A DNA stretch of 62,019 bases, the filler included, from Thelocarpon superellum (Eukaryota), in assembly GCA_026025795.1 (NCBI GenBank). It is 8 parts of 8 records of this genome, joined end to end, with 100 filler letters (N's around TTAATTAATTAA, not from the genome) between each part and the next. Parts side by side here need not be neighbours in the genome. Positions count along the whole stretch, not along the records: positions 38,895 to 46,547 come from JAPEUG010000627.1; 7 more parts are not named here. One strand, given 5' to 3'. Below are positions 23,413 to 46,000 of this stretch, in pieces (position 1 is the stretch's first letter; each line of letters begins with the position of its first letter). Made by a program: the position numbers and the translations under genes. The notes under the pieces were generated by a model that saw only the letters and a program-made list of their open reading frames with translations, was not told the origin of the DNA and did not search any database.

Positions 23413-25609
23413 ATGAAGACCGTAAGTGTTGCAGGAGCGTCTCCGCCAACATGGCTGATCATGGTGACAATAGACCTGGAAGGACATCGTTCCGGTGCCG
23501 ACATCGCAAGACTTCTTGGACCAGGTGCTCTCCCGGACGCAGCGACGGTTACCCACGCAGATTCGGGCAGGGTTCAAGATCAGCCGGATCCGAAGTGAGT
23601 TGACCATTCCTCGATGATGTTACGCCATGAACGTCGTTGACCCGGCGCCTCCAGACTTCTACACCCGAAAAGTCAAGTACACGCAGGAGACCTTTTGCGA
23701 GAAATTGTCGGCCATCCTCGAGGGCTTCCCACGGTTACAAGACATTCATCCCTTCCGTAAGTGGCACCTGCCCCGGCAGTCGGCGTGAAGAGGCACTGAC
23801 CTTGGGATGATGGTCCACTGTAGACAAGGATCTTCTCAACACCCTCTACGATGCGGATCACTTTCGCATTGCTTTGGGACAACTCTCCACGGCCAAGCAC
23901 CTCATCGAGACGGTGTCCCGGGATTATGTTCGTCTCATCAAATATGCGCAATCGCTGTTTCAGTGCAAGCAGCTGAAGCGCGCCGCCCTGGGCCGGATGG
24001 CTACCATCACCAAGCGGTTGAAGGACCCTCTCCTCTACCTCGAGCAGGTCCGGCAACACCTCGGTCGTCTTCCGGCCATCGATCCCAACACCCGGACGCT
24101 GCTTATCTGTGGCTATCCGAATGTGGGCAAATCAAGCTTCCTACGGAACGTCACACGCGCCGACGTGGACGTCCAGCCGTACGCATTTACCACCAAGAGC
24201 TTGTTCGTCGGGCACTTTGACTACAAATACCTGCGCTTCCAAGCCATCGATACGCCCGGCATCCTCGACCACCCGCTCGAGGAGATGAACACGATCGAGA
24301 TGCAGTCCATTACGGCCATCGCACATCTGCGGTCCGCCATCCTCTACTTCATGGACCTCTCGGAACAGTGTGGCTACTCCGTCATGGCACAGATCCAGCT
24401 CTTCCAGAGCATCAAGCCGCTATTTGCCAATAAGCTCGTCTTTCTCGTCATCAACAAGATCGACTTGGTCCGGCCGGAAGATCTCGAGGCAGAGACACAA
24501 GAGCAGCTCCAGTCGCTGCTGAAGGCCGGCGACGTGGAGATGCTGCAGCTCTCGTGTACCACATCCGAAGGCGTGATGGACGTGCGGAACGCGGCGTGTG
24601 AGCGGCTGCTCGCCGAACGGGTAGCACAGAAACTCAAGGCTGGCAGCAGCAACGGCGGTGCGGTCGGTGGACGGTTGGGCGACCTGCTTGGCCGGATTCA
24701 CGTCGCGCAGCCAATGGAGGGGACGCAGCGCGAGGTTTTCGTTCCAGCGGCTGTCAAACAACGGGCCAAGTACGACAAAGAGGATCCCGCCCGTCGCCGG
24801 TTGGAGCGTGATCTCGAAGACGAGCAGGGCGGCGCCGGCGTCTACAGCTTCGATCTCAAGAAGAATTACCTACTGGACACGGACGAATGGAAGTACGACA
24901 AGATGCCCGAGGTCTTTGATGGGAAAAACGTGTACGATTTCATTGACCCTGACATCGAGGCCAAGCTGGCGGCATTGGAGGAAGAGGAAGAGAGACTAGC
25001 CGAGGAGGGCTTCTATGAGTCGGACGAGGAGCTCGAGGACGCCGCCGAGGCCAACATCCGCGCCAAGGCCGAGCTGATCCGTGAGAAACGAGATCTGATC
25101 CGCAATGCGGCTAAGATGAAGAAGTCGCTCAAGAACCGTGCCGTCATTCCCCGCACGGCCACGAGGAAGAAGCTCTCCGACATGGAACAGCATCTTGATT
25201 CGCTCGGGCTGGATTCGACCGCACTGTCGATGCGGGCGCGCGCCAAGTCGCGCGGACGTAGCGTTACGCGCAGTCAGACGGGCGCCGGCGATGCCATGGA
25301 CCTGGATGCTCCAGTCGGCTCGCGCGCCGCTTCTATCGCACGGGCCAAGAGTCGGGCGCGCAGTCAGAGCAACCGGCGCGATGACGGCGTCACGGATCCA
25401 GCGGCCCGCAGCAAAGCCGACCGGTTGGCGAAACTGGGCCAGAAGAAGATGAACCGGATGGCGCGACAGGGTGAGGCCGATCGGCACACGTCGTCGGCAA
25501 TGCCCAAGCATCTGGTGAGACTGCCCGGTCTTCCTGCAGGAGCGATAGGTACTGACCACTATCGTAGTTCGCCGGTAAACGAGGCATGGGCAAGACGCAA
25601 CGGCGGTAG
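23413..25609 (+). CDS. NOG1: Nucleolar GTP-binding protein 1
   Basis: [24 protein letters not shown]1 [10 protein letters not shown]2 YAFTT, G3 DTPG, G4 NKID; end [17 protein letters not shown] after intron 25515-25568. Confidence 0.97.
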
Positions 25610-25724
25610 AGTCACGGCCATCTCCAGTGAGAGTGCTACGACGTGGCGTTGGGCAGGATCATTTGATGGTCGAATGGGGAGTCTAGCATGCCGCGATTCG
25701 GGTAGATTTAAAGGACGCCTCGCA

Positions 25725-26531
25725 TCATGCGTCGGCGCGATACCGCTCGCGATACGCAGTGAGCCGGGCCATGTCCTCGGGCGCGTGCGCGTGCGCGTCG
25801 CTCAAGCCATGGATGATGTCGTCCAGGGTGAGGATGGAGAGGACGGGGATCCCGTACTGCTTCTGCACCTGGCCAACTGCACTCGGTCTCGGGGCCGGGT
25901 CATCATCGTCTCCTGGCTTGGCGACCTTCTCCATGCGATCGAGGGCCACAACGACCCCGACCAAGCTGCCCCCCTCTCGCGCGATGATGTCGATGGCCTC
26001 TCGGATCGCCGTGCCCGCCGTAATGACATCGTCAATGACGAGCACTCGCTTGCCTTTTAACGGACATCCCACAATGGTGCCGCCCTCGCCGTGGTCCTTG
26101 GGCTCTTTGCGGTTGAACGCGTAACTGAGCTGACCGAAACGCTCGACGTCGAGCGTCGCAAGCTTCTCCGTCGTGGCCGTGGCCAGAGGGATGCCCTTGT
26201 AGGCCGGGCCGAAGAGCACGTCAAATTCCAGCGCGGGGATCGCTGTCGATATCTGCCCCGTACTCGTCGTGGATGAGGACTCGTCAGACTCTGCCGCCAG
26301 GTAGGCCGCAATGGTCTGCGCGTAGGCGGTAGAGATGGACCGGAGAAGATCGGCGCGGTGGAAGAGTCCGGCGTTGAAGAAATATGGCGAGACGCGTTTC
26401 GAGTTCAGCGTGAAGGAGCCGAAGCGTAACACGCCGCCATCAAGGCAATGCTGGAGAAATTCGGCTTTCCAGGGCGCCAAGCTGCCGGATGCTGCTGCTG
26501 CTACCGCTGCTGGGACTTGGGCGTCGGTCAT
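25725..26531 (-). CDS. URA5: Orotate phosphoribosyltransferase
   Basis: [48 protein letters not shown] motif [11 protein letters not shown]; intronless. Confidence 0.97.
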
Positions 26532-31162: not shown

Positions 31163-33406
31163 CTATCCCTTCCCCGAATCCTCCTTCAAGCCGACAATCC
31201 GATTCAACACAATCTTCCCATCCACCTGATCTTGATCCATGGCAAAATAGGCCACTCGCATCCCCTGGAACCGAACCGTCTCCGCTCGTGCCTCTGCCCC
31301 CGTCACGTCTCTCTCGCCCTCCTTGGCGGGCCAGGGCGCCCGGCGTCGAACCTCGTCGAATCCCGTCTCGATCAAGGCGTGGGGAAAGACTTCCTCGCTG
31401 TGAGAGTTGACGATGGATACCTCCGGCTCTTCAATCTCCTTGTTCTTGGCCCCCTTTCCTTTCTTGCCCTTGCCCTTGGCTTCGCCCTCCGGACCAGGCG
31501 TTCCCTTCTGAGTTGGCTTCGCCTCGTCTCCTTTGGCCGGGTACACTTTTTGCCCATCCACTGCCGTGCTATCCGTTGCAGGTACGCCGGCGGGCTCTGC
31601 CCCTTCGTCGATTCTATCGCCTTCACCCTCGTTCTGTTTCGAGTCCAGCAGGATGTCGGTCGACGTCACGTCCTTGACCTTCTTCGAGAGAATCAGTGGA
31701 TTGAAGAGACGAGCTTCCACCTTGATGGGGGAGTTGTGCTTAGGCGACGCTGCCACCCATTGGATGTAGGCTTTCGGCTTTTTGATGTGCACGCCCTCTT
31801 CCGGCTTCTCGTACGTGGCATGTACTTCCTTCACATGCCCCGTCGCGGCGTCGGTCGTGAATGAGGTGGCCCGGATGGGAAAGGGAACCTTGAACAGACC
31901 GACCGCCTTGCCCGGAGCCAGCCGAAAATAGTCCGGGCTGTCCACCTCCTTAAAGTCGGTCCGATCAATGTAGATGGTGCGGGTGAAGGGAACGGTGTGT
32001 TGACCGAATTCAGGCTTTTTGGGTGAAAAAGGTAGTTCAATCTCCTCGAGGTAATCGTCCGCGAGGTTGTCGATAATGACGGGGATAGGATCGAGGAGGA
32101 CCATCAACCGCGGTACTGTCTGCTCAAGATAACGTCGTACGCAATTGTCTAATCGGGCAGCTTGGATCTTGGACACAGCCGTCGACACGCCAAGCTCGTT
32201 GACAAAGGACAGGATCGCGCCGGGAGGAATGCCTCGGCGCCGTAGTCCAACCAAGGTGAAGAGTCGCGGATCATCCCAGCCTCGAACATGTCCGTCCTTG
32301 ATGAGCTTGGCAATCTTGCGCTTCGACAGGACCGTCCCTTCCATATTAAGTCGTCCATATCTAGGCCATGTCAGCACCACTGCGGCCTCGCCTCATGAGC
32401 AGGTCTCCTACTCTCGTTGCATCGGTCGGTAGACCTCGAGCGTATCACACAGCCAGTTGTACGACTCGCGCGAGTTGATAAATTCGGCGGTGCAGAGCGA
32501 ATGGGAAATGTTTTCGAAGCTATCGCACAGGCAGTGGGTGAAGTCATACGTGGGATAGATCTTCCACTTGTCCCCCGTGCGTGGGTGGTGTGACGTGTCG
32601 AGGATGCGGTAGGCCGTCAAGTCCCACATCTGCGGGTTGCCATCCTCGTAGTTCTGCTTCATGCGGAGAAAGGCCTCCTTCGGACCGTATCTGCCGTCTC
32701 GCATGGCGCGGAACTCCGCCAGGGACTCCTCGATCGGCCGGGACCGGTGCGGGCAGCCATAGCGAGGACCGCGGCGATCGGGTCCTCCTCGTTGGAGATT
32801 GACTTCCGGTGCTAGGTCACCCGTCAGCCGTGTGTTCACCATGGTCTGGCCATTCTTACCCGTGCAGTGACAGACATAGGCACGGTCTTTCCGAATCAGG
32901 GCCTCGGCGAGCTCGTACAGCTTGTCGAAATGGTCGCTAGAGTGGGTGATGGCGTAGGGCGTGAAGCCTAACCATTCGATGATGTCTTTGATGGCCGTGA
33001 AATATTGCTCTTCTTCCTTTTCGGGATTCGTGTCGTCAAAGCGGAGATAGCACACGCCTCCATGGAATCGGGCGAAGCCAAAGTTGATGGCAATGGCTTT
33101 GCTGTGCCCGATGTGGAGATACCCATTGGGCTCTGGGGGGAAACGCGTGATGACGGTGGTCGAGGGCTTCTCGCGGAACACGTCGGACAAGAAGCCTTCC
33201 TTGAACATGGAGTCTGGGTCGCTAGCGTTCACGTTGTCTCCCGCATGCTTTTCTTTCGTGGGTGGCCCATTGCCCCGTGGTTCGCGTGGGGCCTTTGGTG
33301 GTTTTGGTGCTTTGGCTGCTTTGGGAGGCTTGGGTGAGTTGGCCGCAGGTCGCAGGGGCAGTGCCACCCGTTCCTTGACCTCTGTAACTTCTGCCGCCAC
33401 GTCCAT
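31163..33406 (-). CDS. GLN4: Glutaminyl-tRNA synthetase
   Basis: [49 protein letters not shown], anticodon-binding RLAPGK. Introns about 32859-32812 and 32411-32361. Confidence 0.96.
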
Positions 33407-33706
33407 GATGGACTGGGTGGATCGATCAACGATTGCGGGTTGTCCCTCTTGACGACTTGGTGGTGGGATGTGCACAGGACACTCGATAAGAATGACTCAA
33501 GTGTCAAGACGGATCTTATCTGGAGTCGCCTTGCCTCGGTTACGCCGTATGGACGCAGGAACAGATGGCGCTCGGTTACAATGGCTCTCCACACATCCCC
33601 CCCGGGAACCAAGCAAAGCTCAAGGAGATCCGCCATCGACCCCGCCGGGGATGCATACTCCGTCCGACCAAAATACTTCGTAGATGGCGTGCATCCGTGG
33701 CGCCTC

Positions 33707-41719: not shown

Positions 41720-41966
41720 CAGTGTCGAGGTCGGCGAGCGACAGGAGCATGGTCGGTTATTGGTGCATTTGGGGATGATCCTCCAAGAACTTTTCGGTAG
41801 GTTGGACTTGAGTCATCAACACCGCCGGCCTTTTAGCGCGGGGAGCCCTTGTGAACGTACCTCCTACATGGTGGGGTGCCGCTCTCAGGTCTATTAATTT
41901 TCCTTCTCTTGACTCGCGCCCTTCCTCGCCACATCATCGTATCGCGAGATCGCCCAGCACCAAACC

Positions 41967-42504
41967 ATGGGTTCCGTCGTCCTGCCCCATCTGGACTGTG
42001 GATGGAAAGTCGATCAAGCCATCTTGTCGGAGGAGGAGCGTTTGGTTGTGATCCGCTTCGGCAAGGACGGGGAACCACTCTGCATGAGACAAGATGAAGT
42101 GCTCTACCGTAAGTAAGCCAAGCAAGACGGCCACGACCAGATCGTTGACGGCGGTATCGCAGGAATCGCCGACCGGGTAAAGAATTTTGCAGTCATCTAC
42201 GTGTGCGACAATGAGCAAGTGCCAGATTTCAACCACATGTACGAACTCTACGACAAGGTCACCCTGATGTTCTTCTTCCGCAACAAGCACATGATGTGTG
42301 ACTTTGGCACGGGAAATAACAACAAGCTCAACTGGTTGTTGGAGGACAAGCAGGAGCTGATCGACATCCTCGAAACCATCTACCGCGGCGCCAAGAAAGG
42401 ACGAGGTTTGGTCGTCAGTCCGAAAGGTTGGTCCGACACTTCCATCCATGGTCAATTTGATGCTGACCATTGACGTAGACTACTCCACTCGATACCGCTA
42501 TTAG
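41967..42504 (+). CDS. DIB1: U5 snRNP thioredoxin-like protein Dim1/Dib1 (TXNL4A)
   Basis: MGSVVLPHL..W.VDQAILSEEERLVVIRFG..MFFFRNKHMMCDFGTGNNNK..YRGAKKGRGLVVSPK|DYSTRYRY*. Confidence 0.97.
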
Positions 42505-42795
42505 AACAGAGTCCTAGAGAAGAGTGGTCAAATCGAAATTGGGGCGTGGAGTTGAATTATGTGCATTGCCCATGGAGTTTGTGATGTTAGCACGACCATA
42601 TGTGGCGGTTCATGGACCTTTAACAATATGTATATCAACACCTTCAGTCTACGTAAGGTGTTGTTCATTCCCCTGGAAGGTTGCCATCACGTACAGACGA
42701 GGAATTGATAAGCAGTGAGAAAACAGGTGAAGTGGTTGGTAAGAGGTTGACAACGGGGATTATTCAGTGTAATAAGGCGTTCCTGGATCGACAAC

Positions 42796-42930
42796 GGTTG
42801 TGTAGTGTAGTGGATATCGTACGTGCCAACAATTAAATTGCTGATGTAAACGATGCTAATACTCTCACAGACATTGGATTCTGATCAATCACAAATTCCA
42901 ATAACCCCGGTTCGATCCCGGGCACGACCT
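42796..42930 (+). tRNA. tRNA-Gln(CUG) with two introns: a 52-nt spliceosomal-type intron at 23/24 (42819-42870) and an 11-nt canonical intron at 37/38 (42885-42895)
   Basis: Joined exons give 72 nt: GGTTGTG TA GTGT AGTGGATA TCAC A TTGGA TTCTGAT TCCAA TAAC CCCGG TTCGATC CCGGG CACGACC T. All four stems pair; A box TAGTGTAGTGG and B box GGTTCGATCCC are intact. Confidence 0.92.
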
Positions 42931-42933
42931 AAG

Positions 42934-42938
42934 TTTTT
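42934..42938 (+). terminator. RNA polymerase III terminator (T5)
   Basis: TTTTT three nt after the tRNA discriminator base. Confidence 0.8.
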
Positions 42939-43010
42939 GCAATTTCCACGTCGAATCACGGTCCAACATGGTTGAAATGTTGCATTCGTAATTGCTTGGC
43001 CGTCGCGACG

Positions 43011-46000
43011 ATGCAGCCGGAGGTGGAAGAGATTCAATCGGGTGGCCAACTACAAAAATTACTGAAATTTCGACAAGATACCTCTTTTCTCAAATCAGGT
43101 GTGTGGGGCCAACGGATGTTCACATAAAGAGACCGCCCTCTGATTCTCGGCTGTAGCCTACGGTCAGTTCAAACTTTTTCTGGACCCGTTGGAGCAGAAG
43201 ACGCTCCTGGGGAGGGAGTCATTGGAGCGGCAGCGAATTCTGAAAGAATACCTGGATCTCGAGGACGAACGGAGTGGAGAAGATGATGGCCGGTATCTGG
43301 CGTCGATCATGCAAGCATGGGCGCAGGCGTCTCAAAACAACAACGATACGCTCTTCTCGACCATCGCCGAAGTACTGACGTCGTTCCTGCGCATCATCTC
43401 CACCAAGATCGACTTCCGGGATCACGGTATCCGAGCGTGTCGTGCGCTACTCCAGCCCGCTCAGCTGAAGCTCTTAGCCAGAGGCACCTCAACCAGTCGT
43501 TCCAAGGAACGTGTACTGGGCTCCACCCTCGCCTTGCTGACCGAGGTGGTGAGCTTTGACGGAGGTAGCCTAGCAAGGCGTGTTTACGATGTCCGAGAAT
43601 TTACCTGTCAAGGTCTGGGACGAAATCTTGCCCTGCGCGGTGACGCGTCAGGCGCATCGAAGGATAAGAGACAGAAAAGCTCAGTCCGCCACAACGCGTT
43701 GCGATATCTCTTCGCCCACTTCCGCTTCCAGACGAGTGCCAATAAGAGCGATCTCTTAGGTCACCGCGACGTCATCGCTGGCATCTTCCGCGATCTTGGG
43801 GAAGATACGCCGGAGCTTATTCATGATGTCTTGACCGGCATCCTCGAGCACATCATCCGCGATGAGAAGTTGCCTTCCTTCTCCAAACGTCGCGTTTTGA
43901 CCGACTGGAGTCTGGGACGCGTATCCAGTCTCTACCGGTACAAATCACTGACGGTGAAGGAGCGGCCTCTCGAGAAAGCCGTTGACGTAGAAGCTCACGA
44001 GTTTCTCCTGTTGGTCTGCACCACACCGGGACTTGGGGTGCTCTATCCACGATCCGGTTGGTATCCGCCCGGTACTGACGGCGATCTGGGAGATGACCAA
44101 GAAGACTCGGATGATGCCGACGCCATTGACCTGGGCCCAGACGTTGGTCCGAGATCCCAAGGATTCGGCGGAGAACTACCGTTGCGCAATTCCACTTTGT
44201 CAAAGTTCATCCAGACGCTTCGTCCGCAGACGTCGACGATGCAGAGCGAATTGATTCTGGCCATCTTTCGCGCGGCGCCGGAGCTGACGGCCGACTACTT
44301 CGCTAAGAAACAGCATGTCGCTCTCGACCCGAAGCTGACGACGGCATGGATTGGGTACTTGGCCTTCATCCTCTCCACCGTGCAACTCCCTATGCCCACG
44401 TTCTGCGGTCCGCGCGACGGATATGCCGCCTCGCCGCCACCGATTTCGGTGGCGAGCGAGAACATCTTGCCCACTGTACTGAGCCGCAAAGTCTTGACTC
44501 GGTGTTTGACGCAGAAAGTGCCGCTGGTAACCTTTCTTGCCCTTCGTTTACTCATCGTCGCCTTTGAAAAGCTCCAACAAGTGCTGGATGCATTCCGATC
44601 CGCGTCTAGCCAAGGGCTTCGTCGATGGGAGGAAGGAGAGATCAGGCTCATCGAGGAGTTTTGTCGTCGTTGTCCCAAGATGAGCCATGTGATCACGGTC
44701 TTCCGAACGGTTTCGGAGGAGAAGTCAATGCAGCGCGAGGCGGCGACTCGCCTACTAGAGAAGTATTACGCGGTGATTCCGCAGGTCGCTCTGGACGAGA
44801 AGTTCGACGTCTCCAGTCCCTTGACCGCAAGCCTTCGGCGGGTGGCGGACCTGGGAACTCCGCTCGTCAATCAAGAGATGCGCCCCCTCGAGCTCGAGCG
44901 TCTCTTGCATATCGCCCGATATTCACCCGATATGCGGTGGTTCAACAAATCCGGTTCGTCCCCCTGTGATGCTTTTCTCCGGACGTGCCACTAAAAGTTG
45001 CAGAGGGTGTTCCTCTTTCGCCTTTCACGACGCTCGTGTCGCTCGCCGTTGGGTCGTCGCGTAGCCTCCCCATGACCTCGGTGCGGCAGGTGCTCGCTTT
45101 TGTCTCCCACGATCGACAATTGTTCCAAGAACAGACTGCCGTTCCGGCTCTGAATGCTCTCACTGCAAGTCTGCCGTCGGACTCGTTGAGCCCTTGCTCG
45201 CTCGCGACCTTTGTATTTCTAGACGCCTGCGTGGGTCGCTATGTGCGCAAAGCCGTCTATTACCAGGGCGGGTTGGAGCGGCTGGTGATGGAAGGTCACG
45301 ACGGCCCAGGTGGGGAAGGAGAAGCGGCGGCAAGTCCAATCTTGGTGACACTCTGCGAGCAGTGGCCGTTTATCGTCAAGGAGCCATCCGTGGACGCCGA
45401 TTCCAAAGATACTATTGCCCAGTGGCTCGCGCGGCTTTTGCAGTTCCTGCACCAGATCGGAGAAGATCGCGCGACTCTCCTCCGGATCCGGGACATGATG
45501 AACGATGAGAGCGGAAGCGATAATCAGCGGATGGAGTTTACACGGGTATTTGCACGGAACCAACACGCTGGCTTCATCCTGGTCGATGATCCGGTCATTG
45601 TTGCTACTGGCAGCACTGAAGCAGCTGCAACAACGGAGATGCAAGATCGAGACGACGCCAGCGAAGACGAAGAGCTCATGAACGTGGAGGTGAGCAGTGA
45701 AGATCCGGCAGCCTTGTTCCGATGGGTCAAAAAGGACGTACAAGCGGTGCTCGAGGATGGCGATGCGGCTGGGCTCATCCGCTGCCTGTGCTCTGAGGAG
45801 ATCGGCATACGGCGACAGGGTCTCAGCGGACTTGCGCGGATGGTCGTGCGGATGCAGGAATCAGGGTATGCGGAGAAGGAGATGGTGGTGCTTCTGCTCC
45901 AGGAGCTCCTGCACACGGCCAAGGGCTTGGCCGACGACGGGGTGCTGCCCACGTACCTGGTCGAGTTCGCGGCGCGTGCAATTCTGGTGCAGACAGACCC

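Follow-up and report, generated by a model that had tools for sequence, protein, structure and literature searches.

A transfer RNA gene, tRNA-Gln(CUG), at positions 42796-42930 (plus strand) of a 62,019-nucleotide (nt) stretch of Thelocarpon superellum DNA (GenBank assembly GCA_026025795.1; this whole stretch is referred to below as the window) was found to be composed of five pieces, three exons and two inserts. One insert, of 11 nt, is a conventional tRNA intron; the other, of 52 nt, interrupts the D-stem and has the appearance of a GT-AG intron. We consider it probable, at roughly 0.6, that the 52-nt insert is a real U2-type spliceosomal intron in a working tRNA-Gln(CUG) gene, and that it is part of a recurrent and hitherto undescribed phenomenon. 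Its removal by the spliceosome is inferred from sequence and comparative evidence, which also suggests that the tRNA-Gln genes of related fungi carry such introns, at six different positions or more. The broader proposition, that in lichen-type ascomycetes spliceosomal introns have repeatedly colonised tRNA genes transcribed by RNA polymerase (Pol) III, at six or more sites in tRNA-Gln, and have been kept there by selection, appears to us to stand at even odds.

To define the interruption we relied on the pairing of the tRNA stems, which alone permits four placements of the 52-nt deletion, after positions 23 to 26. The insert was assigned to position 23 because only this placement restores ATCAC, the usual continuation among tRNA loci (a continuation of this type follows ATC in 72 of the 82 loci fetched in the scan described below). 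The same placement coincides exactly with GT..AG; by our own arithmetic, chance would give GT together with AG at a fixed placement once in 256 cases, and the GTACGT hexamer alone once in 4096. An earlier note on this DNA had located a GT..AG insert precisely between tRNA positions 23 and 24, and its coordinates and letters proved to be as claimed (Table 1). The sequence features of a U2-type GT-AG intron are all present: the donor fits the fungal consensus GTRNGT, CTAAT is a branch site of the CTRAY type, and the end is a YAG. The insert lies away from position 37/38, the site characteristic of introns cut by the tRNA-splicing endonuclease, at which the separate 11-nt intron is found. Removal of both inserts in silico yielded a 72-base tRNA in which all stems pair except for a T13.T22 mismatch seen throughout the family. 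The restored cloverleaf, the intact A box, B box and terminator, and the lack of any run of four Ts in the insert are likewise as the earlier note had described them. The distance between the A and B boxes is 106 nt instead of about 44 nt.

Table 1. Features of the interrupted tRNA-Gln(CUG) gene, in window positions
Feature	Position	Strand	Remarks
5' exon	42796-42818	+	tRNA positions 1-23; acceptor 5' strand, D-stem 5' strand, D-loop, first two bases of D-stem 3' strand
A box	42803-42813	+	inside 5' exon
GT..AG insert, 52 nt	42819-42870	+	between tRNA positions 23 and 24; GC content 0.385; longest T run 2
Donor GTACGT	42819-42824	+	start of 52-nt insert
Branch motif GCTAAT	42855-42860	+	putative branch A at 42859, 11 nt from insert end
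Acceptor CAG	42868-42870	+	end of 52-nt insert
Middle exon, 14 nt	42871-42884	+	positions 24-37; completes D-stem; anticodon stem 5' strand and loop
Anticodon CTG	42881-42883	+	inside middle exon
11-nt intron	42885-42895	+	canonical 37/38 position, tRNA-endonuclease type
3' exon	42896-42930	+	positions 38-73; anticodon stem 3' strand, 4-nt variable loop, T arm
B box	42909-42919	+	inside 3' exon
Acceptor 3' strand	42923-42929	+	inside 3' exon
Discriminator T	42930	+	last base of 3' exon
T5 run	42934-42938	+	presumed Pol III terminator, 3 nt beyond discriminator

The gene escapes standard scanners, as had been anticipated. In the native window ARAGORN called no tRNA anywhere, with its intron option on or off, and Rfam reported no tRNA at the gathering score in the window and none at E≤10 on 42700-43050. 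The expectation that deletion of the 52 nt would in itself produce a glutamine call was borne out only in part: with these 52 nt alone removed ARAGORN reported a mis-parsed tRNA, whereas with both inserts removed it reported tRNA-Gln(ctg) of 72 bases. An ARAGORN deletion scan for uniqueness of the boundaries was too permissive (333 mostly nonsensical calls in 3417 deletions) and was replaced by a stem-pairing solver. The locus was also checked against contigs of sequencing runs. A contig of run X1, from the source sample, covers 42784-43565 at a depth of 136.5 with zero differences, and misassembly is therefore excluded. In the same run, the 206 nt adjoining the tRNA upstream (42608-42813) are present in two versions, at depths of 59 and 92, which differ by 13 substitutions and three small insertions, all within 42638-42783; between 42784 and 43565 only one version is seen. 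The two versions could represent two alleles or two strains, both with the interrupted gene.

The mRNA introns of the same fungus served for comparison. The protein deposited for NOG1 maps to the gene at 23474-25606 (plus strand) as four exact blocks, implying three introns, with gaps of 63, 70 and 53 nt, starts GTGAGT, GTAAGT and GTGAGA, TGAC-type branch motifs, and CAG or TAG ends. A heuristic based on continuity of open reading frames (ORFs) gave 35 candidate introns in the window, from which 15 non-overlapping ones were selected; all 15 are unverified predictions. Their lengths range from 49 to 70 nt, with branch motifs CTAAC, CTGAC or CTAAT and a mean GC content of 0.63 (range 0.47-0.77), and four of the 15 (at 6111, 46179, 22294 on the minus strand and 14841 on the minus strand) begin with the same GTACGT donor as the tRNA insert. 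At 52 nt, the latter falls within the length range of the host introns, in keeping with the earlier description of its length as typical of the window. A search of the 62-kb window and the 82 loci for a second copy of the insert, such as an introner-like element would leave, found none; the best matches were of 9-10 nt.

Beyond this locus, metagenomes were scanned with a pattern that required the D-arm motif through ATC and, after 73-103 nt, a T-loop; GT and AG were not demanded. The scan reaches only genes that carry this D-arm motif and are interrupted by about 45-75 nt in total. The 82 loci were sorted by our own stem-pairing solver. Uninterrupted at the motif were 38 loci (71-72-nt tRNAs, for which the far end of the pattern had matched something downstream), and another 26 had only a long canonical intron at 37/38. 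In eight loci (seven distinct sequences, L013 and L020 being 99.9% identical) an insert was found elsewhere, at the same place as in the window or at five others, and all eight are tRNA-Gln genes (Table 2). The six insertion sites are 23/24, 27/28, 31/32 and three in the 5' strand of the T-stem. A canonical intron of 5-20 nt is present in all the interrupted loci but L071. ARAGORN with the -i option mis-parsed such genes (L042 as Pro, L045 as Arg, L013 as Gln with a 50-nt 'intron'), and those intron calls were not used.

Table 2. Metagenome tRNA-Gln loci with an insert outside position 37/38
Locus	Anticodon	Insert site	Length	Donor / branch motif / acceptor
L027	CUG	after 23, same as window	41 nt	GTAAGT / CTAAC / AAG
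L045	UUG	after 27	50 nt	GTGAGT / CTAAC / CAG
L042	CUG	after 31	55 nt	GTTGGT / CTAAT / TAG
L013 = L020	CUG	within T-stem 5' strand	49 nt	GTAGAG / no strict motif / TAG
L071	CUG	within T-stem 5' strand	55 nt	GTAAGT / TTAAC / CAG
L053	UUG	between G53 and T54	52 nt	GTAAGC / CTGAC / AAG
L069	UUG	between G53 and T54	53 nt	GTACGT / CTAAC / AAG

As shown in Table 2, the inserts are 41-55 nt long and cluster like short fungal introns. A GT..AG placement was possible in all eight non-canonical inserts, compared to none of the 26 canonical-only introns; it was unique in L027, L045 and L042, with two possibilities in L053, L069 and L071 and five in L013/L020. A strict CTRAY motif 5-30 nt from the 3' end was found in six of the eight distinct inserts (that of the window included), with the putative branch A 8-15 nt from the end. 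When the interiors were shuffled, a mean of 1.07 inserts carried CTRAY, and six or more did so in 1 of 2000 trials; the motif was absent from all 18 distinct canonical introns of at least 41 nt. The exon contexts of the insertions (ATC|AC, CTC|CG, GGA|TT, CAG|GT, CGG|TT and CCC|GG) have no common motif that would mark a proto-splice-site.

An alternative agent for the removal of such inserts is the tRNA splicing endonuclease, or another nuclease guided by structure, which would cut out an ectopic tRNA intron as in the multi-intron tRNAs of red algae, nucleomorphs and archaea, the GT..AG being incidental. The machinery is present, as the same gene has a normal endonuclease-type intron, and ectopic tRNA introns do exist in other eukaryotes (passages of PMC4090602 and PMC3978253). 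According to the same passages, endonuclease-type introns lie at 37/38 in eukaryotes and are marked by a bulge-helix-bulge in Archaea, Cyanidioschyzon and nucleomorphs. The ectopic ones described there resemble the present inserts in that the intervening sequence sometimes lies in the D or T arm, with sometimes several per gene, and in being missed by standard scanners; they differ in being defined by RNA structure, whereas the present inserts have no bulge-helix-bulge and do have GT..AG and a branch site. Under strict scoring, the central helix of that motif has 0-2 of 4 pairs in all nine non-canonical inserts, while 13 of the 24 canonical introns listed have 3-4. The value for the window is 2 of 4, which confirms the earlier remark that GATA does not pair with TCAC. 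The minimum-free-energy fold of the window precursor is unremarkable (z -0.91) and contains no bulge-helix-bulge motif. Moreover, cleavage of this kind needs neither the GT..AG that fits at 8/8 loci nor the branch motif found in 6/8 distinct inserts. We therefore regard removal by a structure-guided nuclease as very unlikely.

Among the other loci of the scan, eight fungus-like tRNA-Gln genes (L024, L077, L059, L075, L048, L054, L064 and L030) have unusually long introns at 37/38 (45-72 nt); none of these is GT..AG, and several have no good anticodon-intron helix in strict register. L062 (positions 259-387) is a GC-rich tRNA-like gene with perfect acceptor pairing, interrupted after the same ATC by a sequence that does not start with GT; ARAGORN forces it into a tRNA-Ala with a 37-nt intron, and it may carry a structure-defined ectopic intron of another lineage. 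L031 (positions 116-306) is a tandem partial duplication: downstream of a normal tRNA-Gln(CUG), at distances of about 70 and 120 nt, its T arm and the 3' half of its acceptor recur in two extra copies.

The interrupted genes display several signs of being intact. After in silico removal of the inserts, ARAGORN called tRNA-Gln in 18 of 18 genes (nine interrupted and nine canonical-only). The four stems pair in all 18 except for the common T13.T22 mismatch and one extra A.C in the T stem of L042, and they vary among loci through compensatory changes. The A box is kept in all nine interrupted genes, by design of the search, and the B box is kept too; in L053 and L069 the last G of the insert stands in for G53. 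Each interrupted gene is followed, within about 20 nt, by a run of five to ten Ts. L053 and L069 are orthologous, as their upstream flanks contain blocks that align at 80%. Two exon positions differ between them, one has a canonical intron of 20 nt and the other a canonical intron of 12 nt, and their inserts, at the same site, are diverged throughout, with the GTA.G start, the CTGAC/CTAAC 10-11 nt from the end and the AAG end kept. This pattern is the one expected if the tRNA and the splicing of its insert were both under selection, and would be hard to reconcile with a gene that has been dead since the insert arrived. The case for a spliceosome-processed tRNA gene is strengthened by the eight additional GT..AG loci and by the conserved signals of this orthologous pair.

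The main rival explanation is that these are insertionally inactivated copies, in which an intron or an intron-like mobile piece has landed and the Pol III transcript is left unspliced or is spliced too rarely; their exons would look intact owing to the recency of the event or to gene conversion with working copies. The composition of the window insert, which is unlike that of the predicted mRNA introns (GC 0.385 vs 0.63), is in favor of this scenario. So is another tRNA-Gln-type locus with different flanks, found in runs X2-X4 (moss metagenomes), which matches the window gene exactly in a 23-nt 5' segment (42796-42818) and a 30-nt 3' segment (42901-42930); runs X2, X3 and X4 gave no cover on the 52-nt insert itself. 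The 17 letters that precede its 3' match point to another anticodon stem and to a canonical intron, so that it probably represents tRNA-Gln(UUG) from this species or one close to it. Given the shared segments, other family members could supply the function or act as conversion donors. Conversion, however, would tend to erase the insert too, and L053 and L069 have kept the insert, its signals and intact exons while the intron interior and most of the flanks were randomised. In addition, none of the nine interrupted genes carries a disabling change, and their stems show compensatory changes. What decay looks like is seen at L017 (positions 265-410), a tRNA-derived sequence with a (GTAT)n microsatellite after ATC, broken acceptor complementarity, a degenerate anticodon arm and no GT..AG: a clear pseudogene or repeat, in contrast to the intact interrupted genes. 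On balance, we consider it unlikely that the interrupted genes are dead copies.

If the insert is indeed a spliceosomal intron, Pol III would transcribe the gene from its intact A and B boxes, through the insert, and stop at the T5 run. The nuclear spliceosome would recognise GTACGT, the CTAAT branch site and CAG, and the intron would leave as a lariat; C23 would thereby be joined to A24, allowing the D-stem and the L-shape to form. Only afterwards would the ends be processed, the tRNA be exported, and the 11-nt intron be removed by the ruler-type tRNA endonuclease and ligase. The intron would most likely have entered an abundant tRNA by reverse splicing and then have reached the gene through reverse transcription and recombination, the route proposed for the spliceosomal introns of fungal small nuclear RNAs (snRNAs) and lichen ribosomal DNA (rDNA).

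A different route to the same product would begin with Pol II: the tRNA would be embedded in a capped non-coding or 5'-untranslated-region transcript, which would be spliced normally, and then be freed by RNase P and RNase Z. The location of the gene would suit such a route, as it sits between a minus-strand ORF (end 42470-42479) and the URB1/NPA1 ORF (start 43309), within an 840-bp divergent promoter region and 379 nt upstream of the URB1/NPA1 start codon; furthermore, the spliceosome is normally coupled to Pol II (a passage of PMC8527467). Against it stand the intact A box, B box and adjoining T5 of the window gene, and the T5-T10 runs that follow all eight other interrupted genes in unrelated flanks. 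Moreover, the longest T run in any insert is four or fewer, and only Pol III transcription would select against runs of five or more. These observations make a Pol II origin of the transcript very unlikely.

Several points weigh against a spliceosomal intron in a working gene. The spliceosome usually works on Pol II transcripts. The window insert is compositionally atypical of the 15 predicted mRNA introns, as noted above, and the other tRNA inserts are also fairly AT-rich (GC 0.26-0.49). Two of the eight distinct inserts (L013 and L071) have no strict branch motif, and two have weak donors (GTAGAG and GTTGGT). Ten of the 82 loci are without interpretation (L005, L010, L014, L017, L051, L052, L061, L062, L066 and L074); among them L010 is a normal tRNA-Gln according to ARAGORN, and L062, interrupted after the same ATC, may be a case that is not GT..AG. 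The relatedness of the eight metagenome loci to the window fungus is suggested by tRNA similarity only. Finally, the window copy could be dispensable, and even a dead copy could retain undamaged exons through gene conversion among tRNA gene copies.

Full-text literature searches revealed no paper on a spliceosomal intron in a tRNA gene, which agrees with the remark in the earlier note that this class is not known to have been described; most subscription journals and supplements lie outside the coverage of these searches, and an older report is possible. Passages of a 2026 review on non-canonical splicing (PMC13149111) and of a preprint (10.1101/2025.06.17.660180) state that tRNA splicing is independent of the spliceosome; the tRNAscan-SE 2.0 paper (PMC8450103), in the passages concerned, states or assumes the same, or covers only structure-defined introns; and the string 'spliceosom' occurs zero times in the tRNA-intron review PMC4090602. 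The proposal of the earlier note, a spliceosome-processed tRNA gene, has held in its sequence-level claims and gained strong comparative support, while excision by the spliceosome itself stays at the level of inference.

Two known systems provide precedents. Lichen-forming ascomycetes carry ectopic spliceosomal introns in their Pol I rDNA (Bhattacharya et al. 2000, as cited in PMC8527467), and passages of PMC8527467 report that yeast removed a 57-bp Cladonia grayi rDNA intron from Pol I rRNA. Like these, the tRNA insert would be a short GT-AG intron in the gene for a structural RNA of the translation machinery, transcribed by a polymerase other than Pol II, and its host, judging by the NOG1 matches given below, belongs to the same broad lineage of lichen-type ascomycetes. 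The differences are that the insert sits in a tRNA gene, transcribed by Pol III and about 72 nt long, and not in a multi-kb rRNA, that it splits a cloverleaf helix and coexists with an endonuclease-type intron, and that splicing of the rDNA intron was shown experimentally, whereas the tRNA insert is known here from sequence. In PMC8527467, tRNA is mentioned zero times. The second precedent is that of the snRNAs: according to passages of PMC5855946, U6 of Schizosaccharomyces pombe, a Pol III product, has a spliceosomal intron, as do U1, U2 and U5 of Rhodotorula hasegawae. These too are spliceosomal introns in small non-coding RNA genes, and U6 demonstrates that the spliceosome can act on a transcript made by Pol III. 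Reverse splicing with reverse transcription is described there as the accepted hypothesis for their origin; unlike tRNAs, snRNAs sit in or close to the spliceosome's active site, which explains their being hit. U6, U2, U5, U1 and rRNA are listed in those passages as intron-bearing non-coding RNAs, and tRNA is not among them.

As for the host, the NOG1 reading frame (23811-26060) has 100% identity to 'MAG: Nucleolar GTP-binding protein 1 [Thelocarpon superellum]', and the next matches are to lichen fungi at 79-87% identity; the named ones, at 79-83%, are mostly from lichen-forming fungi such as Candelaria, Caeruleum, Pleopsidium and Sarcosagium. The lineage of Thelocarpon is that of the Thelocarpales, Pezizomycotina (lichen-type ascomycetes). 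The GC content of the window is about 0.59. The minus-strand ORF next to the tRNA (41934-42479) had no Pfam match; inside it, at 42244-42433, the depth of run X1 is about 610, compared to about 135 nearby, with several variant contigs, so that this part of the coding sequence may be repeated or present in multiple copies. About 10 kb from the tRNA-Gln gene lies a gene for a class I Glu/Gln-tRNA synthetase (31163-33496, minus strand), split over two reading frames and with the Pfam tRNA-synt_1c domain and its anticodon-binding domain.

In textbooks and current reviews, tRNA introns and spliceosomal introns are separate worlds, and a spliceosome-dependent tRNA, if true, would break this partition. 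The tRNA would join snRNAs and lichen rDNA, so far the few non-coding RNAs into which spliceosomal introns have made their way, and would be a second example from nature of a Pol III transcript spliced by the spliceosome; it would also offer compact and datable examples of intron gain at several sites of a 72-nt gene. The maturation of some tRNAs would then depend on two splicing systems in succession, with the spliceosome acting before the tRNA endonuclease. As the interrupted genes are invisible to ARAGORN and Rfam, the tRNA sets of these fungi are under-counted, and an isoacceptor recorded as 'absent' may be an interrupted one. Together with the known rDNA introns, such genes would make the amounts of rRNA and of tRNA alike dependent on the capacity of the spliceosome, a link that would possibly be part of the strategy of slow growth and stress tolerance proposed for the lichen rDNA introns.

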